DNA of 64,000 nucleotides from Spirochaetota bacterium (GTDB lineage: Bacteria; Spirochaetota; UBA4802; UBA5550). The stretch covers positions 352,001 through 416,000 of the forward strand of contig CAXXHB010000003.1 in the NCBI GenBank assembly GCA_963664815.2. Reading direction: 5' to 3'. Positions 37,057 to 61,452 of the stretch are shown piece by piece (position 1 is the stretch's first letter; each line of letters starts with the position of its first letter). Under the pieces are notes generated by a model, which worked only from the letters and a program-made list of their open reading frames with translations, was not told the origin of the DNA and made no database searches. The translations under genes were made by a program, and so were the position numbers.

Positions 37057-38943
37057 TTGGATAGTCTGGAGAAGTATTCTATGACTAGTGAATTAAATTC
37101 AATGTCTGAAATCCGCATAACTGATCTGCGGGTTGAAGACGTAATGACGCGGAATTTCGGTGTTGTAAAACATAACGTGTCTATCAGTGATGTTGTGAAT
37201 TTGATTCTGGCAAATGACTGGGAAGAGATCTTTATAATTGATGAATCAGATAAGTTCATACATATAGTAACAAAGAAACATCTGTTGAACATTATAAAAG
37301 ACGGATTTGACCAGCAGAAACCTATCTCGCATATCTGCAATAATAAAATAATAACAACATCCCCGAAAATTTCCCTGATTGACGCCAGAAGCGTTATGCG
37401 TGAAAACAGGATAGGGCGTTTGCCTGTTGTCGACAAGGACAAAAATGTTCTTGGTGTTTTAACTGCACGCGATGTGTGTAATGGATTTTCATCAAAGCTG
37501 GAAATGCTTGGTGAACATATGTATTCAATTATGGAAAATATTTCTGAAGCCATACAGGTAATAGACTGTACCGGTGTAGTAACTTACTGGAATCATAGTG
37601 CTGAAAAAATGTTTGGTTTTAAAGCATCAATAATTTTAGGTAAAAAGCTTGCTGATTTTATTCCTGATGATCTTCCTTTGAAAGTAATAACAGATCATGA
37701 TACATATCGGGATGTTATAACTGAACTGGATAGTGGAATTGTTATTGTCAGGAATGCGGTACCTGTTATCTCCTCTGGAGGTGAGATGATAGGAGTGGTC
37801 TGTACAAGTAAGGATATCACCGTCACAAAGAATCTTATAAGTAAGATTGACCATTATCAGACGAGAGTCGTTAAACTTGAACAGATTATGGATTCACGTG
37901 AATGCACTCAGGTATCCAATGCAGAAGAAAAGTTTTATACGATAGATACAGAAACATTAACTATATTGAAACAGGCTGCCAGGGTTGCTGCTTCGAATGC
38001 CACGGTTCTTATTACAGGTGAAAGTGGTACCGGGAAAGAGCTTATGGCAAAATATATATATCGTAATAGTCAAAGGTATGATAAACCATTTATTGAAATT
38101 AATTGCGGCGCTATTCCTGAAGCATTATTCGAAAGTGAAATGTTCGGCTATGAATCCGGTGCTTTTACGGGAGCGTCTAAAAATGGTAAACCTGGAAAGT
38201 TTGAACTTGCCAAACTGGGAACTCTTTTTCTGGATGAAATAGGGGAGCTGCCGATAGAAATGCAGGCAAAATTCCTGCGCGTTCTCCAGGAGAAAAATTA
38301 TTACCGGGTAGGAGGGAAAACACCTCTGGTAAGTGATGTGAGGATTATCGCTGCGACAAACCGCGATATGAAAAAACTTGTAGAAGAGAATATATTCCGA
38401 AAGGATCTCTTTTATCGTATGAGTGTTGTTGTTCTGGAAATACCACCTTTAAGAGAAAGAAAATGCGATATCCCGGGTCTTATTCAACTGTTCATCAATC
38501 AGCTGAATCTTCAATATGGAAGATCTATCAGTGGTATTGGTTCTGATGTTATTGATTTATTGACCGATTATTCCTGGCCTGGTAATGTAAGGCAGCTTCA
38601 CAATATACTCGAAAGAATATTTATTCTCAGTGAAGATAATTATATTACATTGCAGACAGTAAGTGAATCCGGTTTAAATACAACATTATCTGGTGACAGG
38701 ATTAACATGAATAATAAACCAGTTATTTCAGAGATTGAGGAGCCAATTAACAGTAATATAAAACTTGATGAATTAATTGATACTCGAGAAAGGGAAGTAA
38801 TTCTTGAAGTTCTTAAAAACTGTGATTATAATAAATCTCAGGCAGCGCAGGTTCTGGGAATTCCCCGCAGTACGTTATATTACAAATTGAAGGTTCTTGA
38901 TATAGAGACTGATCTTGTTTCAAAAAAACTGACATTTTGTTAA
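37057..38943 (+). CDS. Sigma54-dependent transcriptional activator with CBS pair, PAS, AAA+ and Fis-HTH (start possibly 37081 or 37102)
   Basis: CBS motifs (VEDVMTR, IGRLPVVD), PAS (YWNHSAE), GESGTGKE, GAFTGA, LFLDEIGE, WPGNVRQL, AAQVLGIPRSTLYYKL. Confidence 0.95.
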   Translation: MDSLEKYSMTSELNSMSEIRITDLRVEDVMTRNFGVVKHNVSISDVVNLILANDWEEIFIIDESDKFIHIVTKKHLLNIIKDGFDQQKPISHICNNKIITTSPKISLIDARSVMRENRIGRLPVVDKDKNVLGVLTARDVCNGFSSKLEMLGEHMYSIMENISEAIQVIDCTGVVTYWNHSAEKMFGFKASIILGKKLADFIPDDLPLKVITDHDTYRDVITELDSGIVIVRNAVPVISSGGEMIGVVCTSKDITVTKNLISKIDHYQTRVVKLEQIMDSRECTQVSNAEEKFYTIDTETLTILKQAARVAASNATVLITGESGTGKELMAKYIYRNSQRYDKPFIEINCGAIPEALFESEMFGYESGAFTGASKNGKPGKFELAKLGTLFLDEIGELPIEMQAKFLRVLQEKNYYRVGGKTPLVSDVRIIAATNRDMKKLVEENIFRKDLFYRMSVVVLEIPPLRERKCDIPGLIQLFINQLNLQYGRSISGIGSDVIDLLTDYSWPGNVRQLHNILERIFILSEDNYITLQTVSESGLNTTLSGDRINMNNKPVISEIEEPINSNIKLDELIDTREREVILEVLKNCDYNKSQAAQVLGIPRSTLYYKLKVLDIETDLVSKKLTFC

Positions 38944-39005
38944 GTAATTCTACGTTTATTTTAATTAATTGCAGCTCTTTTATGTAATCCGGAGAGGAAG
39001 AAAAA

Positions 39006-40289
39006 ATGGCAACTTATCAGGAAATCAGACAAATGTGGTCAGATATAGGCATTGATCTGGATAAGCATGATATTTTTCTGGATACATTCCCCGGAGTATA
39101 TAAACGGATAATTCAGAAGCAGGAAAGAAGACCCGATAAGATAGATTATTTCAGCAGGATGGTGGCCAGTGTACATGGACGCCGTCCTTATGAACTTTTT
39201 GAACATAAACAGCAAGGGGGTAAGGTTTTTGGTGTCTATTGTGTTTATGTTCCGGATGAAATTATTCTGGCTTTAGGTGGAATCAGTACTGGTTTATGCG
39301 GTGGCGATCAGTTCTGGGTTCCCGGCGGAGAGAAATATTTGCCGGCAAATACCTGCCCATTGATTAAGTCTTCTATGGGATCACGCCTTGACAGAACCAG
39401 TCCCTTTTGCCAGATAGCAGATATCTTTATCGGGGAAGCTACATGTGACGGGAAGAAAAAAGCCTGGGAAATTCTGGCTCAGGATGTACCTATGCATATA
39501 ATGCAGGTACCACAGATGAAAAGGGAGGAGGACATCCGGAGTTTTGTCAGTGAAATACGGCAACTGATAAAAGTTTCCCAGGGTTTAACCGGTAAGCATT
39601 TAACCTTTGATGCTCTGGCCAGGAGTATAGTTACTATAAACAACAAGCGCAGAGCATTGAGCCGGCTTAATCTGACCAGACAGGCATCACCTGTACCCAT
39701 CAGCGGTAAGGACGCCCTCATGGTCATACAGGTGGCTTTCTATGATGATCCAATACGTTTTGTTGAAATGATCAATATTCTCTGTGATGAACTGGAAGAC
39801 AGGATAATTAAAAGAGAAGGTACTTTTTCTGCTGATACCCCCCGTATACTTGTGACGGGAACACCAATGGCTCTGCCAAACTGGAAACTTCATCACCTGA
39901 TAGAGACTTCCGGAGGAGTTGTTGTTTGTGAAGAAAGCTGCACAGGTACACGGTATTTTGAAAATCTTGTTGATGAAAACAGCAGTAATTTGGAAGAACA
40001 GATTATGGCTTTGGCCGATCGCTATATGAAAACCAATTGTGCATGTTTTACCCCCAATAGTGCACGGATTGAAGATATTCTTCGCTATGTTAAAGATTAT
40101 AATGCAGACGGTGTTATAGATTGCTCTCTGCAGTTCTGTGGTCTTTATTCCACAGAAAGTTATCTGCTGAGAGAGGCTTTGCGAAATGAAGGGATCCCCT
40201 TTCTTCATCTGGAAACGGATTATAGTGAACAGGATTCAGGACAGCTGCAGACGCGGATTGAGGCTTTCATGGAAATGATAAAAAAATAG
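39006..40289 (+). CDS. 2-hydroxyacyl-CoA dehydratase-family / double-cubane-cluster anaerobic reductase
   Basis: Cys motifs YCVY, GLCGG, TCPLIKS, TCDGKKK, EESCTGTRY, NCACF, LQFC; ETDYS...TRIEAFMEM. Confidence 0.85.
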   Translation: MATYQEIRQMWSDIGIDLDKHDIFLDTFPGVYKRIIQKQERRPDKIDYFSRMVASVHGRRPYELFEHKQQGGKVFGVYCVYVPDEIILALGGISTGLCGGDQFWVPGGEKYLPANTCPLIKSSMGSRLDRTSPFCQIADIFIGEATCDGKKKAWEILAQDVPMHIMQVPQMKREEDIRSFVSEIRQLIKVSQGLTGKHLTFDALARSIVTINNKRRALSRLNLTRQASPVPISGKDALMVIQVAFYDDPIRFVEMINILCDELEDRIIKREGTFSADTPRILVTGTPMALPNWKLHHLIETSGGVVVCEESCTGTRYFENLVDENSSNLEEQIMALADRYMKTNCACFTPNSARIEDILRYVKDYNADGVIDCSLQFCGLYSTESYLLREALRNEGIPFLHLETDYSEQDSGQLQTRIEAFMEMIKK

Positions 40290-46289: not shown

Positions 46290-46883
46290 TTGCCACGAGA
46301 ATCGGAAAAAGATTGGGACGATCAGCTATTCCAGAAAGTTGACAGATATAAACTGGCCCAGAATCTTGAAAGCTGTCTTCAATGCGGGAAATGCACGGGT
46401 AACTGCCCGGTTGCTGCGCTTACTACTTCTTATAATCCAAGGGCAATTATCAATGATATACTATCAGGGAATATATCCAGACTGCTGGACAGCGAAGAAA
46501 TCTGGAGATGTTTCTGGTGTGCAAATTGTTACAGGGTATGTCCGGTTGATATCAGTTATCCAATGCTTATGATGCAGCTCAGATATTTGGCACTTGAAAA
46601 TGGATACGGATTAAAATATGTCGTCAATATAAATAAATTTACATACAAAGCTCTTGATGAAGGTCTGAGTTTTGTACCCGGTGCGAAAGGTATAGAACGT
46701 ATAAAAAAACTTCGCACTGCGATAAACGTTTCTCCATGGCCTGAAGTATCAGAAAGGGCTAAAAAGGAATACAGGGAAATATTTGAACAAACCGGAGCCG
46801 TGGCGTGGATGAAAAAGATTGAATCTCAGGAGGAGAAAGGACTGAGAATGAGCTTCGCAGAAGGGAGAATTACAAATGAGTGA
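46290..46883 (+). CDS. hdrC: Heterodisulfide reductase-like subunit C (copy 1)
   Basis: CLQCGKCTGNCP and CFWCANCYRVCP; TTG start after GGAGG. Confidence 0.9.
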   Translation: MPRESEKDWDDQLFQKVDRYKLAQNLESCLQCGKCTGNCPVAALTTSYNPRAIINDILSGNISRLLDSEEIWRCFWCANCYRVCPVDISYPMLMMQLRYLALENGYGLKYVVNINKFTYKALDEGLSFVPGAKGIERIKKLRTAINVSPWPEVSERAKKEYREIFEQTGAVAWMKKIESQEEKGLRMSFAEGRITNE

Positions 46884-47835
46884 TAATATTCAAGTCAGGG
46901 TAATCAGACCGGAAGAACGGATACCGGAGATACCGGAAAAAATATTTCTTTTCCGCAGCTGTACCGGAAGCATGGAATACCCTGGAACAGAGCTTGCTGT
47001 CAAAACAGTACTGTCAAAAATCGGTGTTGAGGTTATAATGGATCCGGACCAGACATGCTGTTCGGGATATATACTAACATGTTCCGGGTATACACCTGAA
47101 GCTTCACTGGCGGTAACTGCAAGGAACCTCGCTATGGTTGAACAGAAGTATAATCTGGATACATATGCCTTTTGTAATGGATGCTTCGGATATATGCGCG
47201 AGTTGTCTCACATAGTAAATCATGCACCCGGCATGAAAGAGCAGGTGAATGAGCTTATAGGAAAATGGGGATATAATTATAAAGGTAAAACTACAATTTA
47301 TCATGTGCAGGAATTGTATTATCTATTGATAGATAGAATCAAATCTCTTGTTGTACGGCCTCTTAACGGTTTGCGGGTGGCATCACATTACGGCTGCCAT
47401 TACCTTGCTCAGCAGTATGGAATTCTTGATGATGGTGATTTGCCGACATTTCATGAAAAGATATATGAAGTTCTTGGAGCAACACCGGTTTTTTACAAAG
47501 AGAGAAGAATGTGTTGTGGTTATGCAGTAGGACGGGGATTTACTCACAAAGAAAGTATGGTGCAGCCTCATCTGTCAAGGAAATTTGACAGCGCCAAAGC
47601 GGAAGGAGTACAGCTTATGACTACTGTCTGTCCGGGATGTAACACAGGGCTTGACAGGGAACAGTCTAATCTTGCGGCAAAGGGATTCGGCCCTTATAAT
47701 ATTCCTGTTATAGATCTGTCTCAACTGATCGGGCTCGCTATTGGTTTGCCGATAAAAAGCCTCGGATTTCAGGCAAACAGCGTATCTATGGATGGTGTAT
47801 TAAATTTTTTGGGATTAAATAAGGAGATCGATTGA
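46876..47835 (+). CDS. hdrB: Heterodisulfide reductase-like subunit B (copy 1, divergent)
   Basis: Two CCG domains: FRSC...QTCCSG...CNGC and HYGCH...MCCG...CPGC. Confidence 0.9.
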   Translation: MSDNIQVRVIRPEERIPEIPEKIFLFRSCTGSMEYPGTELAVKTVLSKIGVEVIMDPDQTCCSGYILTCSGYTPEASLAVTARNLAMVEQKYNLDTYAFCNGCFGYMRELSHIVNHAPGMKEQVNELIGKWGYNYKGKTTIYHVQELYYLLIDRIKSLVVRPLNGLRVASHYGCHYLAQQYGILDDGDLPTFHEKIYEVLGATPVFYKERRMCCGYAVGRGFTHKESMVQPHLSRKFDSAKAEGVQLMTTVCPGCNTGLDREQSNLAAKGFGPYNIPVIDLSQLIGLAIGLPIKSLGFQANSVSMDGVLNFLGLNKEID

Positions 47836-48878
47836 TGAAAGATAAAACTGTTCTTGTAATAGGCGGCGGAATAGCCGGGATGGAAGCCGCATTGCAGATT
47901 GGTAATTCCGGTTATAAAGTTATGCTTGTGGAAAAAGAAAACTCACTCGGGGGAACTCTCCTCAACCTGTACAGCAGTTTCCCTCGGTGGGAGGATCCTG
48001 CCAGACTTGTGCAGATGAAATATGATGATCTTAAAAATTGCGGGAATGTTCAGATAAAAACCGGAACAGTACCTGTTGCAAGCACAAAGCAGGGAAAGGG
48101 ATACATTGTAGAACTCAAGGGTACTGACGGGCAGAATGATAAAGTTCAGGCTGATGCAGTTGTAATTGCAACGGGTTTCGGGCTTTTTGATGTTTCTGCA
48201 TATGGCGAATATGGATATGGCGAATATGATAATGTTCTCAATACACTCGAGTTTGAAGCGAAACTGAAGGAGTGGATTGAAGATAAATCAGGAATGATAA
48301 AAAAACCCAAGACAATTGCTTTTATCAAATGTGTCGGCTCGCGGGACAGGTCAAAAGGGTATCCTTACTGTTCTAAAATTTGCTGCATGATAACTGCAAA
48401 ACAGGCTGGACTTGTTAAAGATATTCTCCCGGACGCAAAATGTTTCGTTTTTTACATGGATTACCGTGCAGCGGGAAAGGAATACGAGGAATTTGTGCGT
48501 ACTGTTATTGAAGAAAAGCATGTTCGTTATGTCAGAGGCAGACCAGCCAAGATTCTGCCTGAAAACGGCAGAATGACTTTAAGGGTTGAAGATACTCTTA
48601 TGGGTGTACCTGTTGAGGTAAGGGCTGATATGGTTGTACTGGCTGCTGCAATAGAACCGAGTGCGGGGACAAAGCAAATGGCGGAGATTTTCAGACTGGA
48701 GTCAGATCATTACGGATTTTTGGAGACGGTTTACGGAAGTCCTTCAAGAGCATCTGATATGATTTTTGTCGCGGGTTCGTGTACATATGCGGTAGAGACA
48801 AAAGGGGCCCTGCAGCAGGGAGCATCAGCAGCAGCTGAAGTATTGGCCATGTTCGGCCGTGAAAATACAGGAGAATGA
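47832..48878 (+). CDS. hdrA: Short heterodisulfide reductase-like subunit A (FAD plus one Fe-S cluster, no ferredoxin inserts)
   Basis: VIGGGIAG, EYGYG, CVGSRD...CSKICC, FYMDYRA; only 348 aa. Confidence 0.9.
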   Translation: MMKDKTVLVIGGGIAGMEAALQIGNSGYKVMLVEKENSLGGTLLNLYSSFPRWEDPARLVQMKYDDLKNCGNVQIKTGTVPVASTKQGKGYIVELKGTDGQNDKVQADAVVIATGFGLFDVSAYGEYGYGEYDNVLNTLEFEAKLKEWIEDKSGMIKKPKTIAFIKCVGSRDRSKGYPYCSKICCMITAKQAGLVKDILPDAKCFVFYMDYRAAGKEYEEFVRTVIEEKHVRYVRGRPAKILPENGRMTLRVEDTLMGVPVEVRADMVVLAAAIEPSAGTKQMAEIFRLESDHYGFLETVYGSPSRASDMIFVAGSCTYAVETKGALQQGASAAAEVLAMFGRENTGE

Positions 48879-48879
48879 T

Positions 48880-49476
48880 ATGTCAGAAACAGTCCGGCAG
48901 ACATCAGAAGTTTTTTATCATTTAGTAAAACTGGATGAAACAGACAATAGACTGGCTGATGAAATAAAACAGAGCTGCGGTGTTGATATTGAGATGTGTC
49001 TGGAATGCGGTAAATGCACTGGCGGCTGTTCAAATACTCATATATTCGATTTTACACCACGGAAAATTATACAGCTTATAAAACTCGGACAGGAGGATAA
49101 ACTGTTGCATATGGATTCTCTGTGGACATGTGTTTCATGTCAACTCTGCTTTGACCGCTGCCCTTCAGGGATCAGCGTAGCCAGAATTATGGATTACCTT
49201 CGTGAAAAAAGTCATAAAAAAAATATTAAACCCTCACGTGAAAACGTTATGCTGTTCCATGAAATAGTATTGAGGTCAGTTCAGCATTCAGGAAGGCTTC
49301 ATGAACTTGGTTCCGTTATGCAGTTCAATATAAAAAGCGGAATGTTATTCAAGGATACGGAGCTTGGCATTAAAATGTTTTTTAAAGGCAAATTGAGTCT
49401 TTTTCATTTTAAAATCAAAGGCGTAAAACAGGTAAGACGCTTATTTAAATATTTTTATGCCGGGGGTGAAAAATAA
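48880..49476 (+). CDS. hdrC: Heterodisulfide reductase-like subunit C (copy 2)
   Basis: CLECGKCTGGC and CVSCQLCFDRCP; ATG 48880 preferred. Confidence 0.9.
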   Translation: MSETVRQTSEVFYHLVKLDETDNRLADEIKQSCGVDIEMCLECGKCTGGCSNTHIFDFTPRKIIQLIKLGQEDKLLHMDSLWTCVSCQLCFDRCPSGISVARIMDYLREKSHKKNIKPSRENVMLFHEIVLRSVQHSGRLHELGSVMQFNIKSGMLFKDTELGIKMFFKGKLSLFHFKIKGVKQVRRLFKYFYAGGEK

Positions 49477-50351
49477 TGATAAATGTAGCTTATTATCCCG
49501 GTTGTTCTTTAAAAGGAATGGCCAGCGAATATGATAAATCATCCCGCATTGTGTGCAGCCACCTGGGAATAAAACTTCATGAAATTAAAAACTGGAATTG
49601 CTGCGGGGCCACATCGGCTCACAGTTTAAATCATAACCTTGATATAAGTCTTTCAGCCCGTAATCTTGATATTGTAAAAAGCATGAACCTTGACCATGTG
49701 ACAAGTCCATGTCCTGGATGTTTTAGCCGCCTTAAAGGTTCATCTTTTGAAATGAGGAATAACACGGCAGTCAGAAATACAGTCGAGAAATTCCTGGGGA
49801 GATCCGCACCTGTTGAGCCCGAGGTCAGCAGTATGGTTCAGCTTATTGTTGAGAATAACAGTATGAAAGAGATTGCAAGTCATGTGGTAAAACCTCTTAA
49901 CGGGCTGAAAGCAGCCGTGTACTACGGGTGCCTTCTTACAAGGCCAAAAAAGATTGTGGGATTTGATGATCCGGAAAAGCCGATGTCTCTGGATTTTATA
50001 ATGCAGTCTGTTGGAGCTGAGACCGTCACCTGGGGCTGTAAAGCCGAATGCTGCGGGGGCGGATACTCTGTTTCGGAAACAGATATCGTTATGGATCTTT
50101 CATCCAGAATTTTGGAGTCAGCCCATCAGTCAGGTGCTGAGGCTATTGTTGTTGCATGTCCGCTTTGTCAGGCTAACCTGGATACAAGGCAGAAAGCTAT
50201 CAGTGAAAAGCAGGGGATTAAGTATAATTTACCTGTTATCTACTTTACTCAGCTTATGGGACTTGCTTACGGAGATAAGTCTTCGTCACTGGGGTTCAGG
50301 CGTCTGTTTATCAGTCCATTCAAACTTTTAAAATCAAAGGGGCTGATATAA
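49476..50351 (+). CDS. hdrB: Heterodisulfide reductase-like subunit B (copy 2)
   Basis: YYPGC, WNCCG, CPGC, YYGC, ECCGG, CPLCQ. Confidence 0.92.
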   Translation: MINVAYYPGCSLKGMASEYDKSSRIVCSHLGIKLHEIKNWNCCGATSAHSLNHNLDISLSARNLDIVKSMNLDHVTSPCPGCFSRLKGSSFEMRNNTAVRNTVEKFLGRSAPVEPEVSSMVQLIVENNSMKEIASHVVKPLNGLKAAVYYGCLLTRPKKIVGFDDPEKPMSLDFIMQSVGAETVTWGCKAECCGGGYSVSETDIVMDLSSRILESAHQSGAEAIVVACPLCQANLDTRQKAISEKQGIKYNLPVIYFTQLMGLAYGDKSSSLGFRRLFISPFKLLKSKGLI

Positions 50352-50527: not shown

Positions 50528-51514
50528 GTGAAAAACAAGCTTATTTCAATACAAGAGGCAGTAAAAAAATATACATGGGACGGTATGACTTTTGCCCATG
50601 GCGGTGCTTTACCTGTAGGTTCCGACTGTATAGCATTCTTTCGTGAAATGGTTCGCAATGGAGTAAAGGATATAAACTGCATTTCAAACTGTAATACACA
50701 GGGATCAAATCTGCTTGCCGGTGCCGGTCTCATGAAACGTATGGAGGTCGGGTTTTCCGGTCTTGAGGTATATGGTTTTGCCAACGGTCTTAAAAGGGTT
50801 GTGGAAAGCGGCAAGACAATTCTTGAAGACTATTCCAATGGAGCAATTCCACTCAGACTCATGGGTGGTGCTTTAGGCTGGCCATTTGTTCCCACATTTA
50901 TATGCACAGGTTCCGGTCAGCAATCCTGTTCTGCTGATGAACCGGATGTTTTTCCAAATAAAAAAAAGATACCCGAGATTAAAGATCCTTTTACCGGAGT
51001 TACAATGGGAGCTATGAAAAGTCTCACGCCTGATCTTGCAGTGATCCATGTAACTATGTCTGATATATACGGGAATGCGATTATGCTTGGTACGGAATGG
51101 AGTCGTTTTGAACTTTCCCGTGCATCTAAAAAGGTTATACTGCAGACAGATTATATTGTTGATACTGACTGTATAAAACAGTTTCCGAACCTTGTGAGGA
51201 TCCCTGATCTTGTTGTTGACGGAGTTGTCTATTGGCCCATGGGTGTATGGCCGGCATGTTCAACAGGTGTTTATGACAGTGATGAAGAACATATGGGGCT
51301 GATGAATAAACTGCTTAAAACAGAGGATGGCACAAAAGAATACATAGATAAATATGTCAGGAGTTACACCACATATGAGGAATACCTGGAAGTTATAGGC
51401 AAGGATAAGATCAAAACTCTCAAAGATACAGCAACCGCATTTTTAATGGATCCTTATAAAAAATGGATAGTAAGCGATTCTGAGATCAAGTCTTCGATGG
51501 GGGGAGGTAAATAA
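50528..51514 (+). CDS. Family I CoA-transferase alpha subunit (GctA-like), copy 1
   Basis: KLISIQEAV, LEDYSN...RLMGGALGWPF, PDLAVIH..SDIYGNA. Confidence 0.9.
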   Translation: MKNKLISIQEAVKKYTWDGMTFAHGGALPVGSDCIAFFREMVRNGVKDINCISNCNTQGSNLLAGAGLMKRMEVGFSGLEVYGFANGLKRVVESGKTILEDYSNGAIPLRLMGGALGWPFVPTFICTGSGQQSCSADEPDVFPNKKKIPEIKDPFTGVTMGAMKSLTPDLAVIHVTMSDIYGNAIMLGTEWSRFELSRASKKVILQTDYIVDTDCIKQFPNLVRIPDLVVDGVVYWPMGVWPACSTGVYDSDEEHMGLMNKLLKTEDGTKEYIDKYVRSYTTYEEYLEVIGKDKIKTLKDTATAFLMDPYKKWIVSDSEIKSSMGGGK

Positions 51515-52308
51515 TGGAATATTCTAAAAATGAAGGGATGGCGATTGCCACAGGGAGAGAATTTAATGATGGTGAGCTTGCAATATTCGGCGTGGGTCTG
51601 AGTATGCTTGCAGGATTTTTCGCACAGAAGAATCATGCTCCGAATCTTATAGCATTCACTGAGGGTGGAGTATACGGGTCTACTCCTGTCGGAGGACTGC
51701 CGTGGGGTATTGAGGATAACCGCATATCCGCGAATGCAACAAGCTTTACAAATGCCATTGATGCTCTTGGTATGCTCGTGGCATCGGGCAGGGTCGACAA
51801 TGCTGTAATAGGGGCTGCACAGATTGATAAATTCGGAAACGTTAATACTACAGGTATATGGGACGAAGGAACACAGCCGTGGAAGGTTGGAAGATATACT
51901 CTTCCAAAAGTAAGACTTAACGGAAGCGGCGGCGCTAACGAAATCGCTGTTGGTGCCAAAAAATATTTAATAATGGCAGCTCATGAGAAAAAAAGATTTG
52001 CCGACAGAGTGGATTATATTTCCTCACCCGGCTACATTGATGGAGGAAATGCACGCCAGAGATACGGTTTTCCTGGTGGCGGCCCTTCAGCTATCATCAC
52101 AAATCTTGGTATACTGAGGCCTGATCCGGTAACAAAGGAATTTTATCTGGATGCGTATTTCAGCCATTCGTCTGTTGAAGAAATAATAGAGAATACAGGC
52201 TGGGTGTTAAAGATATCTCCGAATGTCAAGATGGTTCCTGAACCAACTGAGAAAGAACTTGAGAATCTGAGAGCGGTTGATGCGACAGGATCGCTACGGA
52301 AAAAATAA
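51514..52308 (+). CDS. Family I CoA-transferase beta subunit (GctB-like), copy 1, catalytic Glu retained
   Basis: FGVGL, HAPNLIAFTEGG, GAAQIDKFGNVNTT, RLNGSGGANEI. Confidence 0.9.
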   Translation: MEYSKNEGMAIATGREFNDGELAIFGVGLSMLAGFFAQKNHAPNLIAFTEGGVYGSTPVGGLPWGIEDNRISANATSFTNAIDALGMLVASGRVDNAVIGAAQIDKFGNVNTTGIWDEGTQPWKVGRYTLPKVRLNGSGGANEIAVGAKKYLIMAAHEKKRFADRVDYISSPGYIDGGNARQRYGFPGGGPSAIITNLGILRPDPVTKEFYLDAYFSHSSVEEIIENTGWVLKISPNVKMVPEPTEKELENLRAVDATGSLRKK

Positions 52309-52459
52309 TATATTGGCAGGCAGCATAATAACCATGTGAAACATGATTATTTTCTGCCTGTTTAAAATAAGGTAAAGAATTTAATTCAGTATTTATATTC
52401 AGTCACTTGGAACCAGTAGTAGAAAGAGTAAAAATAAATTTAATCAAAGGAGGTTGAAA

Positions 52460-53275
52460 ATGCACGAAAAGTTGATGTCATTATCAAAGGCTGCCGATCT
52501 CATCAGAAATGATATGCTGCTCAGCTTCGGTGGTAATGGGATGCATCGTAATCCTGTTGCTTTTGCATTAGCCCTTACAAAGAGACCTTTAAAAAGTCTC
52601 AGGATGTGCGGGGCTGCACCTGGAATTGCGACTGATATCATGATGCCACAGTCTTGTGAAGCATATTTCGGTTTTTTTGGTCTGGAAAATGAGGCCGGCC
52701 TGGCACCAGGTATGAGAAAAGCGATGGAGGGGGCAAATCCTACAGTCAAGGCATATGAGGGTTCCTGAACGGCGATGATTGCTGCTCTCCGTGCGGGAGC
52801 CTATGGAATACCCTTTATGCCAGTCGGAGGCATGTGGGGAAGCGACTTAGTTGCATTACGCCCAGATTTTTATCAAGTCATGAAAAGCCCGTTTGACGGG
52901 AAAGAAGTAGTATGTGTTAAAGCTCTTGTGCCTGATTATGCCGTAATTCATGTACAGGAAGCGGATATCTACGGGAATGCCCGTATACTCGGCCCGAGTT
53001 ATCAGGATGCGCTTCTTGCAAGAGCAGCAAAAAAAGTAATAATAACAGCAGAGCGAATAGTGGGTACATACCGGATGCAGGAAGAACCTAAGCTTACGGC
53101 AATTCCTCATATGCTGGTTGAAGCTGTTGTTGAAGTACCCGGCGGTGCTAAACCCGGAATTTGTTATCCTGATTATCTCACTGCTGACTGGGATGCTCAT
53201 AAGGCTTATCAGAAAGCTGTGAAGGAAGGTACGGTATCGGACTGGGTGGCTAAACTTTTGGAAGGGAGGTCATAA
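52460..53275 (+). CDS. CoA-transferase alpha-like subunit, copy 2, with in-frame UGA (candidate selenocysteine, codon 103)
   Basis: Track ORFs 52454-52768 and 52775-53275 share a frame: GAG GGT TCC TGA ACG GCG ATG. Read-through gives a continuous 271-aa GctA-like protein. AAGGAGG precedes ATG 52460 and there is no strong SD before 52775. Confidence 0.8.
52769..52800 (+). promoter_or_regulatory. Bacterial SECIS-like hairpin
   Basis: GCTC(T)CC-GTGC-GGGAGC at 52784-52800; the apical loop begins with GU 23 nt after the UGA, and there is a bulged U on the 5' arm. Confidence 0.65.
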
Positions 53276-53276
53276 A

Positions 53277-54014
53277 ATGGAATATGGAAAACCTGAAATG
53301 ATGGCAGTAGCCCTCATACGTGAAATACAGGAAAATGACGTTGTGTTCCATGGTCTTGCTTCATCTACTCCAATGGTGGCCATGAAAGCGGCCAAGGCAC
53401 TTGGCAAAGATTATACATATGTTACTCTCAGTGACGGTCTGGACCATGACTGGAAAAGACCCCCATATTTCGCATCCACACTTTCTGAAAATACTTATAC
53501 TGGTTCCGTGGCGACTTTCGGACTGGATGAAATATTCGATCTTTATATGTCCGGTAAAGGAGATATAGCTTTCCTTTCATGCCTTCAGATGGATAAAACA
53601 GGAAGGATCGCGATGTCATACGTTGGCGGAGAATATGATCATCCGAAACTCAGGGGGCCGGGAGGAGCAGGCAGCGCCTCGCTTACGCCTATGACTCCCA
53701 GAACAATAATCTGGAAAACTCAGCATGACAAGAGAACTTTTATCGAGCACGTAGATTTTGCAACAACATCACCGGCTGTTGATAAAATGTTCACTCTGGT
53801 TACGCCTCTTTGTATTTTCAGGAAGCCGGTTGGAGAAAAACTTCTTAAACTGGATTGTATTTTCCCGTACACAACACTGGAAGAAGTTAAGGAAAATACC
53901 GGATGGGTAATTGATGAAACAAAAGTACCTGTAATGGATCCCCCTACAGAGGCTGAATTGTCAGCAATCAAGAGAGTGGATCCTAACAATATTCTTGCTT
54001 ACGAGTTTAAATAG
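53277..54014 (+). CDS. CoA-transferase beta-like subunit, copy 2 (canonical Glu apparently absent)
   Basis: EMMAVAL, FHGL, FLSCLQMDKTG, LRGPGGAGS, HDKRTF, ENTGW; VTLSDG where copy 1 has FTEGG. Confidence 0.88.
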   Translation: MEYGKPEMMAVALIREIQENDVVFHGLASSTPMVAMKAAKALGKDYTYVTLSDGLDHDWKRPPYFASTLSENTYTGSVATFGLDEIFDLYMSGKGDIAFLSCLQMDKTGRIAMSYVGGEYDHPKLRGPGGAGSASLTPMTPRTIIWKTQHDKRTFIEHVDFATTSPAVDKMFTLVTPLCIFRKPVGEKLLKLDCIFPYTTLEEVKENTGWVIDETKVPVMDPPTEAELSAIKRVDPNNILAYEFK

Positions 54015-54081: not shown

Positions 54082-54155
54082 AAAAATATTGCTGTAATTT
54101 ATATTTTATTGTTTAGCAGGATTTAAAATTTTAATGTGGTGGAATGGTGATTTTT

Positions 54156-55805
54156 ATGAGTAAAAAAGTACTTATAGTCGGAGGTGTTGCAGGTGGAGCC
54201 AGCACTGCTGCGAGACTCAGGAGACTTGACGAAAATGCTGAGATTATTATGTTTGAACGTGGTGAATTTATTTCATTTGCCAACTGCGGGCTTCCATATT
54301 ATGTAGGGGGTGCTATTGTAAACAGGAAAAGCCTTTTCGTACAGACTCCTCAGTCAATGAAAAAACGATTTAACCTGGACGTTCGTATACACAGCGAAGT
54401 CGTAAAAATTTTTCCTTCTGAAAAGAAGGTTGAAGTCCGCAGCATTCAGAAAGGGGAGAATTACTTTGAGACCTATGATTACCTTGTACTTTCTCCGGGA
54501 GCGCAGCCCGTTTTACCGGACATAAAAGGACTGAATCTTCCAAATGTATTCAGTGTCCGCAATGTTCCTGACAGTGATGCAATAAAGCAGTTTATCGATG
54601 CTCATAAGCCTGCAACAGCTGTGATAATAGGCGGAGGTTTTATAGGTATGGAAATGGCAGATGTGCTTCATCAGTGCGGAGTAAAGACAACTGTTGTTGA
54701 AGCGGCAGACCGGATTATGAATCTCTGGCTTGACGGGGAAATGGCAACAACAGTACAGCAGTATATAAATAAGAAAGGAATAGAGCTTGTTTTAAATGAT
54801 AAAGTTGCGGTTCTCGAGGGTTCTTCTGGAGTTGAGAGGGCAGTTCTTGAAAGCGGCAGAGAAATTTCTGCGGAGATTGTAATTCTCGGTACAGGAGTAA
54901 AACCTGAGGTATGGCTTGCAGAAGATGCCGGACTTGTCATTGGCTCCACGGGCGGGATACACGTGGATGAATATCTGCGGACCTCAAATGAATTTATTTA
55001 TGCAGTTGGCGATGCCATTGAAGTAAAAAATATGATTACGGATAAATATGAACTGATGTTTCTTGCAGGTCCTGCCAACAGGCAGGGGAGGCTTGCGGCA
55101 GATAATATTGCAGGAAGACCATCTAAATATTCCGGTTCACAGGGAACAGCAATAATAAAAATAATAGATATGACTGTGGCTGTAACCGGTGCGAACGGGA
55201 AAAGTCTCAGTAATTCAGGAATACCTTTTCTCGCGTGTCATATACATCCCGCTTCTCATGCGGCATACTATCCCGGCGGAACGCAGATGTCGATCAAACT
55301 TTTTTTCACCCCTGATGAAGGAAAAATCCTCGGGGCACAGATTGTGGGATTTGACGGAGTTGACAAGCGCATTGATGTTTTTGCAACTGCTGTCAGGGCT
55401 GGAATGACAGTGTTTGATCTCACTGAGCTTGAGCTGGCCTATGCACCCCCATTTTCATCGGCAAAGGATCCAGTGAATATGGCCGGGTATGTGGCCTCAA
55501 ACATATTGCTTAAGGATATTGAAGTGGTTTACTGGAAAGATGTTCCGGCACTTGTTTCAGGAGGTGCATTTCTCCTTGACGTTCGCATGCCGTCAGAAGT
55601 AGAGGCTGGGGCGGTTAATGGTTCGGTTAATATACCTGTTGATGATCTGAGAAACCGCATTGAAGAGATACCTAAAGACAAGGTGATCCTGGTTTACTGC
55701 CAGGTGGGTCTGCGTAGCTATATCTCTAATCGTATATTAAAGCAGAAAGGATTTATTGTAAAGAATATCAGCGGAGGATACAAGTCCTTCCAATCACAAA
55801 AGTAA
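54156..55805 (+). CDS. CoA-disulfide reductase with C-terminal rhodanese (CoADR-RHD/Npsr-like)
   Basis: IVGGVAGGAS, SFANCGLPY, IIGGGFIG, ELAYAPPFSSAKDP, rhodanese LLDVR...YCQVGLR; ATG 54156 preferred. Confidence 0.92.
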   Translation: MSKKVLIVGGVAGGASTAARLRRLDENAEIIMFERGEFISFANCGLPYYVGGAIVNRKSLFVQTPQSMKKRFNLDVRIHSEVVKIFPSEKKVEVRSIQKGENYFETYDYLVLSPGAQPVLPDIKGLNLPNVFSVRNVPDSDAIKQFIDAHKPATAVIIGGGFIGMEMADVLHQCGVKTTVVEAADRIMNLWLDGEMATTVQQYINKKGIELVLNDKVAVLEGSSGVERAVLESGREISAEIVILGTGVKPEVWLAEDAGLVIGSTGGIHVDEYLRTSNEFIYAVGDAIEVKNMITDKYELMFLAGPANRQGRLAADNIAGRPSKYSGSQGTAIIKIIDMTVAVTGANGKSLSNSGIPFLACHIHPASHAAYYPGGTQMSIKLFFTPDEGKILGAQIVGFDGVDKRIDVFATAVRAGMTVFDLTELELAYAPPFSSAKDPVNMAGYVASNILLKDIEVVYWKDVPALVSGGAFLLDVRMPSEVEAGAVNGSVNIPVDDLRNRIEEIPKDKVILVYCQVGLRSYISNRILKQKGFIVKNISGGYKSFQSQK

Positions 55806-57664: not shown

Positions 57665-58093
57665 TTAATCCAGCTCGAATCCCATGATAGTACATCCTTT
57701 TTCATCATCATCAAGCCATACGACATGCACAGGGGCATCATAAGGAACTTTTTCAATATTGCTATAGTTTATCAGTCGGCCGAACACACGCGGCCCTTCG
57801 TCCAGGGTGACAGAGCATATGGCGAGGGGCAGGTATTCCTTAATAGCCTTATGGAATGGGAAGCGGCCTTCCACGAAGGAGTAAATTTTGCCATGACCGG
57901 AAACTTCTTTCCAGTCAACATCGGCGCTGCCACAGTGCTGGCAGATAAAACCCCCCGGCCAGTAATACTTGCCGCAGCTCTTGCAGTGGGGCAGTAAAAA
58001 CTTATGCTCATCATGAGCAGTCTTGTAAAACAGTTCGTTGTCAGAGCTGGTTCTGAGGTCAAAAGGCAGATTTACTTTTAATGCATTAGCCAT
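57665..58093 (-). CDS. DUF35/ChsH2-like Zn-ribbon plus OB-fold acyl-CoA-binding protein
   Basis: CKSCG...P...CQHCG, VSGHGKIYSF, VTLDEGPR. Confidence 0.9.
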   Translation of the reverse strand: MANALKVNLPFDLRTSSDNELFYKTAHDEHKFLLPHCKSCGKYYWPGGFICQHCGSADVDWKEVSGHGKIYSFVEGRFPFHKAIKEYLPLAICSVTLDEGPRVFGRLINYSNIEKVPYDAPVHVVWLDDDEKGCTIMGFELD

Positions 58094-58095
58094 TG

Positions 58096-59289
58096 TTATT
58101 CCCCCCTTTCTACAATTATAGTTTCGTTGCTCTGATAATAACCGCCGTTATCAGAGATAAGCATGAATTCAGGAAGCTTTGTGCCCGGTATTACCCCTAA
58201 CTGACGATCTCCGCAGCGCTTAGACATCTGCATCACCGCCTCAGCCATCGGAGTAAGGCCCATATAATAACCTTCAGAGAGCAGACCGCCTCCAGTGTTT
58301 ACTGGGAATGCGCCGCCGGGCCCGATATTTTCCACTGTCATGAAGTCGCGGGATTTATTCTTGTCGAAGAACCCATAGTCACCCAGAGTTGCCTCAACTG
58401 TGTATGTGTAGCAATCGTATATCTGGGCTGCACCTATGTCTTTTGGCTCTAAGCCGGCCATCTGGAAAGCTTCACGTCCGGCTACAGCGGCACTGCTTGC
58501 GGGATCACCCGGTGTAAGCTGCCAGCCTTTGGAGGTGTCATTGGCAGCACCGAAACTGCGGATCTTTACGGGCGGATTCTTAAGGTGTTTAGCCCGTTCT
58601 GTGGTGGTGATGATAACAGCCCGGCCGCCGTCAGTTGATGCCGTGGCATCTAAGGCACGGAATGGCCATGAAAGAAACGGTGTAGCCAGGTAGTCATCCT
58701 TTGTCAAAGGCTTGCTGTACTGAATGGCCTTGGGATTCAGATTAGCCCATTTGCGGTGTGCAATAGCTATATCTCCCCATACATCGGGCCCTGTCCCATG
58801 TTCATGCATGGCACGACTGGCGAAAATTGCATAATTTGTGAAAGCAGAAATATTACCGTAAGCGCCGTACTCATCATAGGGCTTGTTGCTTAACAGGTCA
58901 ATTTCGTCTGTCCATGTACGGCGGCCGGTTCTGCCACTCTCGGCAAATACAATCAGTACATATTTACATGTACCGTTTTCAAGAACACCAATCGCTTTAT
59001 TGATGTTGGTGCGGTAGCAGTAAGCTTCCTGGCTTAAGAATTTCGGGCGTATGCCCAGACTGGAGGTTATTACGTTGGCTGTATGGTGAAAAGCGTCTCC
59101 AGACAAAATTGGAAAATCACGGTAAAGAATCAGACCATCTATATCATCCTTCTTTAATCCCGCATCATTAATGGCGTTCATGGTCGCTTCGAGATAAAAA
59201 CTCGCTGCGGAACGTCCAGAAACTACTCCCTGCGGTGTATAACCGACACCGGCAAAGGCATATTTGTTTCTTAATCCTGTACGATCCAT
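58096..59289 (-). CDS. Thiolase-fold protein, SCP-x/Ltp2-like (possible retro-aldolase)
   Basis: AGVGYT, DIDGL, NPKA, TDGGRA, IYDCYT, VNTGGGLLSEGYYMG (no GHP). Confidence 0.85.
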   Translation of the reverse strand: MDRTGLRNKYAFAGVGYTPQGVVSGRSAASFYLEATMNAINDAGLKKDDIDGLILYRDFPILSGDAFHHTANVITSSLGIRPKFLSQEAYCYRTNINKAIGVLENGTCKYVLIVFAESGRTGRRTWTDEIDLLSNKPYDEYGAYGNISAFTNYAIFASRAMHEHGTGPDVWGDIAIAHRKWANLNPKAIQYSKPLTKDDYLATPFLSWPFRALDATASTDGGRAVIITTTERAKHLKNPPVKIRSFGAANDTSKGWQLTPGDPASSAAVAGREAFQMAGLEPKDIGAAQIYDCYTYTVEATLGDYGFFDKNKSRDFMTVENIGPGGAFPVNTGGGLLSEGYYMGLTPMAEAVMQMSKRCGDRQLGVIPGTKLPEFMLISDNGGYYQSNETIIVERGE

Positions 59290-59476
59290 AAATGTGTCCT
59301 CCTTAACTTATTTTGCTATAGATTTTATTGTTTTGAGAGATTCCGCTGTTAACAGAGCAGATGGCAAAAGGAGAAATGCAAATAAAGACAGAAAATATTC
59401 ATTCCATTGGCTATCTACATGTTTCAAGTCAGTACCTTCATGGTGGAATAAAAAATCTTAAACTGATTATATAAAT

Positions 59477-59493
59477 TGCATTATTCGTGCCAG
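59477..59493 (-). promoter_or_regulatory. Sigma54 promoter of the thiolase-like/DUF35 operon
   Basis: Minus strand CTGGCACGAATAATGCA, GG-N10-GC. Confidence 0.78.
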
Positions 59494-59655
59494 TTTAGTG
59501 AATTTATTGTCGGGGAAAACTTGTGCGGAATTACTCCTGATTAAGAAACTTTAATCGTGAATTGAAGAAAAACCGGCAAAAAGCCGGATGTAATATGTAA
59601 TAGATATTTATCTATAAGATTATGATGACATCATATGACGGTTTTTTGAATGAAA

Positions 59656-59686
59656 TGTCAAAAAACTGACGTCAGTAATATTGACA
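59656..59686. promoter_or_regulatory. UAS candidates upstream of the thiolase-like operon
   Basis: TGTCAAAAAACTGACG (59656-59671) overlapping CGTCA-N7-TGACA (59670-59686), about 165 bp from the promoter. Confidence 0.6.
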
Positions 59687-60165
59687 GTTGTACTGTTGTG
59701 CACTGAATTAAAAAAAGTTGATAAATATATATGAGTTGAATTACTCAGTTCAATATAAACGGGAAAATTATAGGTAAAAATAATTGAGTTAATACTTAGA
59801 GAAATAACATAGTGGATCAAATGAGCAAGAATAAAAGAAAGCAATTAAGATCTGAGAAAAAGTTTAATATCGTCAAACAGCATGTTTGAGTAAAACTTAA
59901 ATATAGATAATTAATTCCACGAATTGAGTTAAGGAATTAGTACTGATTTTATTCTATGATAAAACCAATGGGGAGAATATTAATGTAATGGGATTTTTCA
60001 CCTGTTTTTAACAAAATCAGATTTTTTATTATATTTCTGACAGGAATCTTTGCTGAATCCTTCGTAATCATTACGGGCAGTACTGATAAACCATTCATAG
60101 TTTATCCGTGGGAAGTGTCATTATAAAAACGGCAATTTATGGACTAAATATAATGATACAGAGAT

Positions 60166-60204
60166 CGTTATAACCGCACAACATTAGGCTGTGCGGTTAT
60201 AACG
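60166..60204 (-). terminator. 15-bp perfect hairpin after the SCP2 thiolase
   Basis: CGTTATAACCGCACA-ACATTAGGC-TGTGCGGTTATAACG. Confidence 0.65.
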
Positions 60205-60213
60205 GCGTAACTG

Positions 60214-61452
60214 TTACATCTTTTCCAGTATATGTATACACATGGAGGCCTCTTCAACTCCGATATTGCCGCCGCCGTTTTCTGCAAGACCAATTCTGGC
60301 ACCTGCGACCTGTCGTGGACCTGCGTCACCCCGTAGCTGCAGAACTAATTCATGGATCTGGGCAAGGCCTGATGCCCCTATGGGATGCCCTCTGCATTCC
60401 AGTCCGCCGCTTGTGTTTACAGGTTTTTTCCCTCCGAGTGTGGTTGCACCTGATTCTGCATATGGGCCGCCTTCGCCGGTTTTGCAGAATCCCATTGATT
60501 CGCACTGGTGTAGTTCACCCCAGCTGGTGGCGTCATGCAGCTCGGCAAAATCTATATCATCCGGCCCGAGTCCGGCCGTTTCATATGCCTGTTTAGAAAG
60601 TCTTTCGCCAATATCAGGTGCATCAAGGGGACGGTTCTCACCCTGTCCGAGTACCGAAGCGCGTATTTTTACAGGGCGTGCTCCGATAAGTTTTTTAAGA
60701 AACCTGTCCGAACAGATAATTACAGCTGCTGCACCATCTCCAAGAGGTGCACACATAGCACGGGTGAGAGGCCATGCGATTTTTTTATCAGCAAGAACCT
60801 CTTCAACAGACATTTTCTGCTGATACTGTGAGTATGGATTAAGAGAACCATGCAGGTGGTTTTTTGAACAGATTACAGCAAGTTGTTTCTGTGTCGATCC
60901 GAAACGGTCCATATGCCAGCGGGCACCCATGGCATATGCATCCATAAAAATGCTTCGGCCTTCCCCGGGCCTGGAGCCGTCGTCAGGGATTGATACTTTC
61001 AATGTTTTTCCGATTTCTTCCATCATTTTTAACTGATTTAACATATTCCCGACATCCATACAGGATGCGTAGGCTCCCATGGCCACGTTTTTATCAGGGT
61101 GTGATATTTTTTCCGATCCGACTGCTATTGCAGCTTCATACATTCCGGCACGTATTCCAGTGTATGCAAGATGAAGTGCTGTTGAGGCTCCGGCACAGGC
61201 ATTTTCAACATTTGTTACAGGTATTTTATCAATTCCCATTCCCCGGAACACAACCTGACCCCGTATGGAATGCTGCCGCTCATACATCCCCCAGAAAGTA
61301 TTGGAAAAAAATCCCGCCTGAATGTCTTTTTTTGTAAGGTTAGCATCTGCAAGAGCCAGATCAATTACCTTTTCCGCCATTGATTTTACAGTATCATCAG
61401 GATATTTATTAAAGCGTATCATTCCTGATCCGATGATGTATACATCATTCAT
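60214..61452 (-). CDS. SCP2-type thiolase (acetyl-CoA acyltransferase family)
   Basis: VENACAGAS, AELHDA, GHPIGASG, ENGGG. Confidence 0.92.
   Translation of the reverse strand: MNDVYIIGSGMIRFNKYPDDTVKSMAEKVIDLALADANLTKKDIQAGFFSNTFWGMYERQHSIRGQVVFRGMGIDKIPVTNVENACAGASTALHLAYTGIRAGMYEAAIAVGSEKISHPDKNVAMGAYASCMDVGNMLNQLKMMEEIGKTLKVSIPDDGSRPGEGRSIFMDAYAMGARWHMDRFGSTQKQLAVICSKNHLHGSLNPYSQYQQKMSVEEVLADKKIAWPLTRAMCAPLGDGAAAVIICSDRFLKKLIGARPVKIRASVLGQGENRPLDAPDIGERLSKQAYETAGLGPDDIDFAELHDATSWGELHQCESMGFCKTGEGGPYAESGATTLGGKKPVNTSGGLECRGHPIGASGLAQIHELVLQLRGDAGPRQVAGARIGLAENGGGNIGVEEASMCIHILEKM

Follow-up and report, generated by a model that had tools for sequence, protein, structure and literature searches.

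A predicted selenoprotein family on the CoA-transferase fold, encoded across an in-frame UGA in a Spirochaetota genome and its relatives

Introduction

What does a genome encode where a gene for a coenzyme A (CoA) transferase-like protein is interrupted, in an otherwise continuous reading frame, by one TGA codon? The question is raised by a gene that we call A2 (52460-53275) in a 64,000-nucleotide (nt) stretch of DNA from a Spirochaetota bacterium (GCA_963664815.2, contig CAXXHB010000003.1, positions 352,001-416,000 of the forward strand; hereafter the window, in whose coordinates all positions are given unless a locus is named). Open reading frame (ORF) calling under translation table 11 splits A2 into one ORF that ends at TGA 52766-52768 and another, in the same frame, that starts at ATG 52775; an earlier reading of the letters (the original prediction) had proposed that the two form a single selenocysteine (Sec)-containing enzyme. 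Most characterized selenoproteins have thioredoxin-like folds with a redox-active motif (2026 review, PMC13188914). Here, we ask whether A2 is one gene, whether its UGA is read as Sec, and what the enzyme that A2 would form with its partner subunit B2 (A2B2) might do.

Results and discussion

Reading frame of A2

Read from ATG 52460, the A2 frame runs for 271 residues with TGA 52766-52768 as its sole internal stop and ends at TAA 53273-53275, a translation that bears out the proposed pair of ORFs sharing one frame around the TGA (peptide E-G-S-*-T-A-M-I-A-A-L-R-A-G-A-Y-G-I-P-F). The Pfam domain CoA_trans (PF01144) matches residues 6-225, with the TGA inside the match, and orthologs align across the stop over residues 1-270 at 54-82% identity. 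The joined protein is also colinear with the product of a paralogous gene, A1, at 50528 (31% identity, E 4e-27), whose Asn aligns to the TGA, exactly as the original prediction had it. The stretch 52460-53275 is one gene, a single reading frame broken only by TGA 52766-52768.

Two ORFs under table 11, together with a GAGGG motif 13 nt 5' of ATG 52775, are also what would be seen in a pseudogene or a truly split gene, in which the TGA is a stop and translation reinitiates at ATG 52775. The restart codon is not conserved, Met being found at position +3 in only 11 of 29 TGA sequences, which speaks against reinitiation. Contigs of two other sequencing runs, X3 (depth 39) and X4 (depth 6.6), show no differences from the window over the TGA and the hairpin that follows it, and these identical letters argue both against a sequencing error at the TGA and against the pseudogene or split-gene explanation; X3 comes from the same study as the best-matching run and is possibly not independent of it. 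Runs X1 and X2 gave no contig here, and no RNA run was among the runs listed; the contigs bear on the letters, not on expression.

The residue-103 column among relatives

Related loci were gathered as DNA, 80 from species-representative genomes and 80 from metagenomes, and 159 of the 160 cover the column of residue 103, the residue encoded by the TGA. That column holds TGA in 44/159 loci and Cys (TGT or TGC) in 115/159, with no third residue, and every stop found there is TGA (44/44); orthologs with TGA or Cys at this position, for which the original prediction had suggested looking, thus make up the whole set. Among species-representative genomes, the TGA form occurs in records named Syntrophomonas or Syntrophomonadaceae (11), Syntrophobacteraceae (3) and Thermodesulfobacteriota (2), and further in records named 'delta proteobacterium', Desulfosporosinus, Pelotomaculum, Desulfovibrionaceae, Methylomirabilia and Chloroflexi, and another 22 TGA forms lie on metagenome contigs. 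A TGA at one exact column in 44 loci of at least four phyla, with both halves of A2 conserved and Cys at the column in every other homolog, is hard to reconcile with a pseudogene or a gene that is truly split.

In a FastTree phylogeny of the 159 sequences, rooted with the paralog as outgroup and built with rows of fewer than 200 aligned residues (L112 and L144) left out, the Sec/Cys label changes at least six times, at least two of these changes being forced by well-supported branches. Two separate Sec-rich clades are resolved, one with 31 Sec and 7 Cys forms (support 100; clade I) and one, GC-rich, with 13 Sec and 4 Cys forms (support 99; the second Sec clade).

Protein databases present the family differently. 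Of 120 homologs among the matches listed in a protein database search, 79 are 150-174 amino acids (aa) long and correspond to the C-terminal 54-61% of the query, the form in which gene callers leave a Sec gene; the other 41 span the full length, and Cys makes up at least 90% of the residue-103 column when 40 of them are aligned. In public records, orthologs go under 'hypothetical protein' or 'CoA transferase subunit A, partial' (152-174 aa). Reading A2 as one selenoprotein gene would correct a systematic annotation error, dozens of public records giving orthologs as 152-166-aa fragments.

A conserved hairpin downstream of the UGA

A hairpin (GCTCTC/CGTGC/GGGAGC) begins 15 nt after the UGA, and the G of its loop, at 52791, lies 23 nt past the A of the UGA. 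Since the fold of 52760-52830 taken by itself is unremarkable, being no better than shuffles (z −0.35), the hairpin was assessed by comparison with orthologs. Of 29 distinct clade-I TGA sequences, 23 contain its exact 17-mer, and the codons that build it scarcely vary across the 29 (GCT 26/29, CTC 27/29, CGT 29/29, GCG 24/26, GGA 27/28). CGT is invariant at the hairpin Arg despite the existence of six Arg codons, whereas equally conserved residues near the hairpin use three to four codons each, Gly and Pro residues among them using four, with the commonest reaching 13-18 of 29. Six close Cys forms have the same peptide, A-L-R-A-G-A, written in varied codons and with no hairpin. Compensatory changes preserve the stem in the TGA orthologs L031 (GCCCTG...TGGGGC) and L033 (GCGCTG...CAGCGC); across 32 sequences, the paired fraction of cells is 94.3%, with a covariation score of 0.138 versus 0.032 in shuffles (0/500 reach 0.138), with slid controls all below 0.138. 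A stem of at least 6 base pairs (bp) at the right distance is found in 40/44 TGA forms versus 33/115 Cys forms. The hairpin resembling a selenocysteine insertion sequence (SECIS) that the original prediction had placed just 3' of the UGA is therefore confirmed in its position, and codon freezing and covariation in TGA orthologs support it. An Rfam scan of 52700-52900 found no matching model, giving only a chance match to a miRNA (E 5.4).

One metagenome ortholog, L112 (22-60), has a second in-frame TGA that arose by a G-to-T change within the hairpin (CGTGCGTGAGC), and may be a pseudogene or reflect a read error. It is the only candidate pseudogene seen, a rarity that tells against reading A2 as one.

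The second Sec clade has a hairpin of its own, one base further downstream, which is present in 10 of its 13 TGA forms. In GC-rich Cys forms such as L067, L125 and L138, a 7-8-bp hairpin arises at the SECIS position from the codons of the peptide G-L-R-A-A; this built-in tendency may act as a pre-adaptation favoring recurrent switches from Cys to Sec.

Sec machinery of the host genome

The genome of the window holds selA (367 bits), with the SelB winged-helix domain in an adjoining 608-aa frame, and a tRNA-Sec gene (70 bits) near selA/selB. Its selD (G000:C3:2287335-2288261, L011) is itself a selenoprotein gene: it carries a single in-frame TGA, at the canonical GAG-U-AAK site, and a hairpin lies 12 nt past that UGA; the complete set of selA, selB, selC and selD, to which the original prediction had pointed as a check, is present. 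Among 64 genomes of the window's own taxonomic family, A2 was found (E ≤ 1e-40) in that of the window only, and the A2 locus was therefore probably acquired laterally; the nearest relatives of A2, with up to 82% identity, are on metagenome contigs and in records named Syntrophomonas.

Several points weigh against decoding of the UGA as Sec. The hairpin of the window, as noted, does not stand out from shuffles when folded alone; the G-L-R-A-A peptide of GC-rich relatives tends to encode a hairpin whichever residue is used (15/56 GC-rich Cys forms), so that in the second Sec clade a hairpin is a poor discriminator; if the gene was acquired, acceptance of its hairpin by the SelB of this host is an assumption; and both selenium in the A2 polypeptide and expression of A2 are predictions from sequence. 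The unremarkable fold and this dependence on sequence data also favor the pseudogene or split-gene explanation. Against that explanation, synonymous sites are frozen precisely over the hairpin, and together with the evidence from the residue-103 column this leaves it a very slim chance. Decoding of the UGA as Sec, which would make A2 a selenoprotein, is in our judgement very highly probable.

Fold, active-site column and partner subunit

Structurally, the A2-family profile matches, among solved chains, GctA (2.7e-55), AibA (1.9e-45) and IpdA (~1e-38). In an AlphaFold2 model of A2 (predicted local distance difference test, pLDDT, 91.8; predicted template-modeling score, pTM, 0.90), residue 103 opens helix 103-115, after strand 97-100, and structural matches of this model are led by IpdA (6con_A, 1.5e-23), followed by AibA and then GctA. 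The E of REMDEGM in IpdA 6co6_A falls in the Cys/Sec column, and the same residue is A in 6coj_A, whose PDB title reads 'IpdAB E105A COCHEA-CoA complex'; the original prediction had matched the UGA to the Glu of the IpdA EMDEG segment, and the profile alignment does lead to E105, the residue mutated in 6coj. Crowe and colleagues reportedly described Glu105 in 2018 as the catalytic residue of IpdAB. The column is Gln in GctA and Gly in AibA.

A single base separates the A2 stop from the B2 gene, and A has B as its direct neighbor in 38/38 close loci examined. The closest solved chain to B2 is AibB (2.4e-17), and Leu stands in B2 opposite AibB Cys56, which PMC7756340 gives as the position of the catalytic Glu in GctB/glutaconate CoA-transferases. 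That Glu was found in none of 138 B subunits, where the column is Ile (96), Leu (28), Val (12) or Gly (2), and no conserved Cys was found in the same 138. Set beside the classes known for this fold, both subunits have the fold and the Pfam domain of class I CoA-transferases, and B2 lacks the beta-subunit Glu; A2B2 differs from the IpdAB type in having Cys/Sec in place of Glu105, and from the AibAB type in the Leu of B2. Pfam and NCBIfam searches of the window revealed no steroid-catabolic genes, and NCBIfam has no specific model for A2 (best match 29.6 bits versus a cut-off of 128.5).

Because the beta subunits lack the catalytic Glu, A2B2 is probably an alpha/beta enzyme of the class-I CoA-transferase fold that is not a canonical transferase. 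One could instead envisage a transferase in which a Cys/Sec acyl-enzyme (thioester or selenoester) replaces the glutamyl anhydride and thioester intermediates, as the fold, the Pfam family and the constant pairing of A2 with a beta subunit would suggest. However, besides the absence of the defining Glu, the class-I ping-pong mechanism passes through an enzyme-CoA thioester that Cys or Sec cannot form, and a Glu-bearing pair encoded alongside (A1B1, below) makes a second transferase redundant, and we regard such a transferase as quite improbable. Taken jointly, the selenoprotein nature of A2 and the non-transferase character of A2B2 appear highly probable from these comparisons.

Gene neighborhood in the window

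The features of the window discussed here are collected in Table 1.

Table 1 Coordinates of A2 and associated features in the window
Feature	Position	Strand	Description	Basis
Hdr-like genes	46290-50351	+	Order HdrC-like, HdrB-like, HdrA-like, HdrC-like, HdrB-like	Pfam Fer4, CCG, FAD
A1	50528-51514	+	GctA-like alpha subunit	Pair with B1
B1	51514-52308	+	GctB-like beta subunit, catalytic Glu kept	1poi_B match 5.8e-41, TEGG aligned to VESG
Ribosome-binding site	52449-52453	+	GGAGG, 6 bases 5' of ATG 52460	Sequence
A2	52460-53275	+	Alpha subunit, CoA-transferase fold, 271 aa, predicted Sec at residue 103	Translation with TGA=U
UGA codon	52766-52768	+	Predicted to be read as Sec103	Column comparison with related loci
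SECIS-type hairpin	52784-52800	+	6-bp stem 52784-52789/52795-52800, loop CGUGC 52790-52794	Ortholog comparison
B2	53277-54014	+	Beta subunit partner of A2, 245 aa, without transferase Glu	Pfam CoA_trans
CoA-disulfide reductase	54144-55805	+	C-terminal rhodanese domain; active-site Cys48 in FANCGLPY	Pfam, NCBIfam
Thiolase-like and ChsH2/DUF35-type genes	57665-61452	Other strand		Pfam

A1B1 is a probable true CoA-transferase, judged by the catalytic Glu kept in B1, and would supply an acyl-CoA substrate; one operon would thus encode a true transferase (A1B1) and a Glu-less, predicted Sec enzyme (A2B2). The CoA-disulfide reductase family includes Sec forms with the motif UGxP (table of the 2026 review, PMC13188914); the active residue is Cys in the window and in 57/57 co-located matches. 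Among the Hdr-like genes, the HdrA-like flavoprotein is short (348 aa), its matches to HdrA models of NCBIfam are below the curated cut-off, and its gene is flanked by two HdrC-like plus HdrB-like sets; the same five-gene order also precedes A2 in L020, L023 and L024.

Further upstream, at 37057-40289, lie genes for a sigma-54 activator (CBS-PAS-AAA-HTH; 37057-38943) and, after it, a double-cubane-cluster anaerobic reductase (NF040772, above cut-off), and the two may belong to the same regulon as the Hdr and CoA-transferase genes; a homolog of this reductase follows B2 in L095. GC content climbs from ~0.35 to ~0.42 across the window. An ORF with a TonB-dependent receptor plug domain (24902-27283) indicates an outer membrane, yet the closest A2 orthologs are in Bacillota records.

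Gene neighborhood in relatives

In 38 close loci of the Sec clade, A1 and/or B1 lie upstream of A2 in 15/38, at least part of the Hdr-like Fe-S, CCG and FAD genes lie upstream in 10/38, and a CoA-disulfide reductase with a rhodanese domain is found in 10/38 (9/23 among well-flanked clade-I loci). Other neighbors include transporters (MFS, CstA-like, CitMHS) and, in L029, two rhodanese proteins.

These neighborhoods bear on a second enzymatic alternative, in which A2 is a selenoprotein but A2B2 cleaves a C-C bond, by an IpdAB-like retro-Claisen ring opening or a thiolase-like reaction, with Cys/Sec in the place of Glu105 as nucleophile or base and with the nearby thiolase-like and DUF35 proteins as partners. 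IpdA and AibA rank above GctA in the structural matches, the Cys/Sec column corresponds to IpdA E105, and IpdAB itself catalyzes retro-Claisen hydrolysis (PMC6678751); the thiolase-like and ChsH2/DUF35-type genes of the window have counterparts directly upstream of A2 in L022. However, thiolase and DUF35 genes adjoin A2 in just 1/38 loci, the neighbors conserved across the family are disulfide reductases, not thiolases, and residues at which Sec repeatedly replaces Cys are typically redox-active ones and not general bases (PMC13188914). C-C cleavage is, on balance, unlikely.

In distant Cys forms (~40% identity, motif EHACYTVI), a CoA-disulfide reductase adjoins A-B in 32/43 well-flanked loci, and PduL and microcompartment shell genes are each present in 28 of the same 43. 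Three full Cys-form loci were annotated, from Clostridium malenominatum (L034/L174), Acetanaerobacterium elongatum (L037/L175) and Cytobacillus solani (L063/L176). They begin with a sugar ABC transporter, S-methyl-5-thioribose kinase (MtnK), methylthioribose-1-phosphate isomerase (MtnA), a DeoR regulator and a class II aldolase, and continue with an acylating aldehyde dehydrogenase, 4-5 shell genes, PduL, a binding-protein-like gene, a CoA-disulfide reductase, A(Cys) and B; MtnK and MtnA score above curated cut-offs in all three. In 13/13 Bacillota genomes checked, these three and 10 further ones, MtnK above cut-off lies ~8-11 kb upstream of the Cys form; in the 10 further genomes the distance is 7.6-10.7 kb, with the kinase on the strand of the Cys form (10/10). 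The kinase, isomerase and aldolase correspond to a 'DHAP shunt', which leads from methylthioribose to dihydroxyacetone phosphate (DHAP) and 2-(methylthio)acetaldehyde.

Two candidate precedents for this locus were rejected. Sugar phosphate utilizing (SPU) microcompartments are defined by a DeoC-type aldolase (DERA), the locus has a class II aldolase, and the SPU paper mentions neither methylthioribose nor CoA-transferase. In Acetobacterium woodii, the methylthioribose kinase that lies beside a cluster is described as unrelated to it. The MtnK-shell-PduL-A-B locus is not described in the main text of the microcompartment catalog or in the other main texts searched.

Proposed function and mechanism

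Functionally, we suggest the following sequence of steps. UGA 52766-52768 would be read as Sec under the direction of the downstream hairpin and of the SelA, SelB, tRNA-Sec and SelD of the genome, and Cys/Sec103, which opens a predicted helix in the acyl-CoA site, would act as a redox-active nucleophile on bound acyl-CoA; we propose this because the Cys is invariant, because several switches to Sec have occurred, and because of that position in the site. A redox role is proposed also because single-Cys CoA-disulfide reductases are constant neighbors and Hdr-like proteins are encoded in the window. The content of the Bacillota locus is the reason for considering a thioether next to a thioester as the substrate: the aldehyde dehydrogenase of these loci would convert 2-(methylthio)acetaldehyde to (methylthio)acetyl-CoA. 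Attack of the nucleophile on the sulfur or on the alpha carbon would then release a thiol and acetyl-CoA, the example reaction being (methylthio)acetyl-CoA to acetyl-CoA plus methanethiol by reductive C-S cleavage next to the thioester. A2 would be left as a mixed selenosulfide or disulfide, which the CoA-disulfide reductase and the Hdr-like proteins would reduce. For the window, the acyl-CoA would come from A1B1, acting on a thioether or mercapto acid that has been imported.

Both the redox role and C-S cleavage are suggested because of an analogy with 2-ketopropyl-CoM oxidoreductase/carboxylase and glycine reductase, and we thus posit, tentatively, that A2B2 might catalyze reductive C-S cleavage of alkylthio-acyl-CoA. 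With the CoA-disulfide reductase and Hdr-like partners it could conceivably constitute a selenol-/thiol-dependent reductive C-S lyase on a CoA-transferase scaffold, an assignment that we hold with low confidence. Some observations pull the other way: no MtnK, aldolase or shell genes lie near the A2 locus in the window; the 13 Bacillota genomes were hand-chosen, not random, and the identity of the contigs in the 10 further genomes was taken from matching coordinates and strand; and the kinase/isomerase/aldolase set could process 5-deoxyribose to plain acetaldehyde, for which no C-S cleavage would be needed.

If reductive C-S cleavage by A2B2 is true, it would be glycine-reductase-like chemistry in a new fold. 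In Bacillota, it would supply the missing downstream step of an undescribed methylthioribose-utilizing microcompartment, tying disposal of a by-product of S-adenosylmethionine (SAM) to a gain of ATP and to the recycling of methanethiol and methionine; syntrophs would be able to use thioether acids as electron acceptors.

Novelty and comparison with known systems

No CoA-transferase-fold family is among the 119 selenoprotein families and subfamilies in Table 1 of a May-2026 review (PMC13188914), in agreement with the suggestion in the original prediction that such folds are not among the classical selenoprotein families. Neither did literature searches or the main texts of deep-Sep, BSepDB and earlier selenoproteomes yield a CoA-transferase selenoprotein, the BSepDB table (111 families) being outside this scope. 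By comparative evidence, A2 very probably represents a genuine selenoprotein family, previously unlisted, and the enzymology of A2B2 is probably new. A2 would thus add to the known selenoproteins a family in a fold absent from the 2026 inventory. More broadly, Cys/Sec invariance, the missing beta-subunit Glu and the disulfide-reductase neighbors define a functional class that stands beside transferases, the IpdAB hydrolase and the AibAB decarboxylase, and the Cys forms mark the methylthioribose microcompartment locus, a testable entry to sulfur and SAM by-product metabolism.

Among known systems, IpdAB, the hydrolase with which Mycobacterium and Rhodococcus cleave cholesterol rings (PDB 6CO6, 6CO9, 6COJ, 6CON), has several features in common with A2B2: it is an alpha/beta pair of the CoA-transferase fold whose beta subunit lacks the transferase Glu, its key residue is in the alpha subunit at the same column, and IpdA is the best structural match. 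However, that residue is Glu in IpdA and Cys/Sec in the A2 family, identity is ~25%, and the window has no steroid-catabolic context, the conserved neighbors here being disulfide reductases. AibA/AibB, the Myxococcus xanthus 3-methylglutaconyl-CoA decarboxylase (PDB 5MZW and related), is likewise a non-transferase of the CoA-transferase fold, yet it has Cys56 in AibB (PMC7756340) where B2 has Leu, and Gly in AibA at the Sec column. The glutaconate CoA-transferase GctAB (PDB 1POI) provides the best sequence match of the A family, and A1B1 resembles a true GctAB homolog; GctAB combines the catalytic Glu of GctB with Gln in GctA at the Sec column, whereas A2B2 has neither.

From a mechanistic perspective, the comparisons extend to unrelated folds. 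Glycine, sarcosine, betaine and D-proline reductases employ Sec as the nucleophile that reductively cleaves a carbon-heteroatom bond adjacent to a carbonyl; the product is first an acetyl thioester and then acetyl phosphate, and a disulfide reductase system of their own reduces the selenosulfide. Their likeness to A2B2 is one of mechanism alone, the folds being unrelated; a phosphotransacylase, PduL, is encoded in the Bacillota loci. In 2-ketopropyl-CoM oxidoreductase/carboxylase, a Cys thiol attacks the thioether sulfur to give an enolate and a mixed disulfide, which is reduced by FAD and NADPH. This enzyme belongs to the same superfamily as the CoA-disulfide reductase encoded with A2B2, and here too the analogy is purely mechanistic: 2-ketopropyl-CoM oxidoreductase/carboxylase performs both steps in one protein, whereas in the system proposed here the nucleophile would sit on a separate protein of the CoA-transferase fold.

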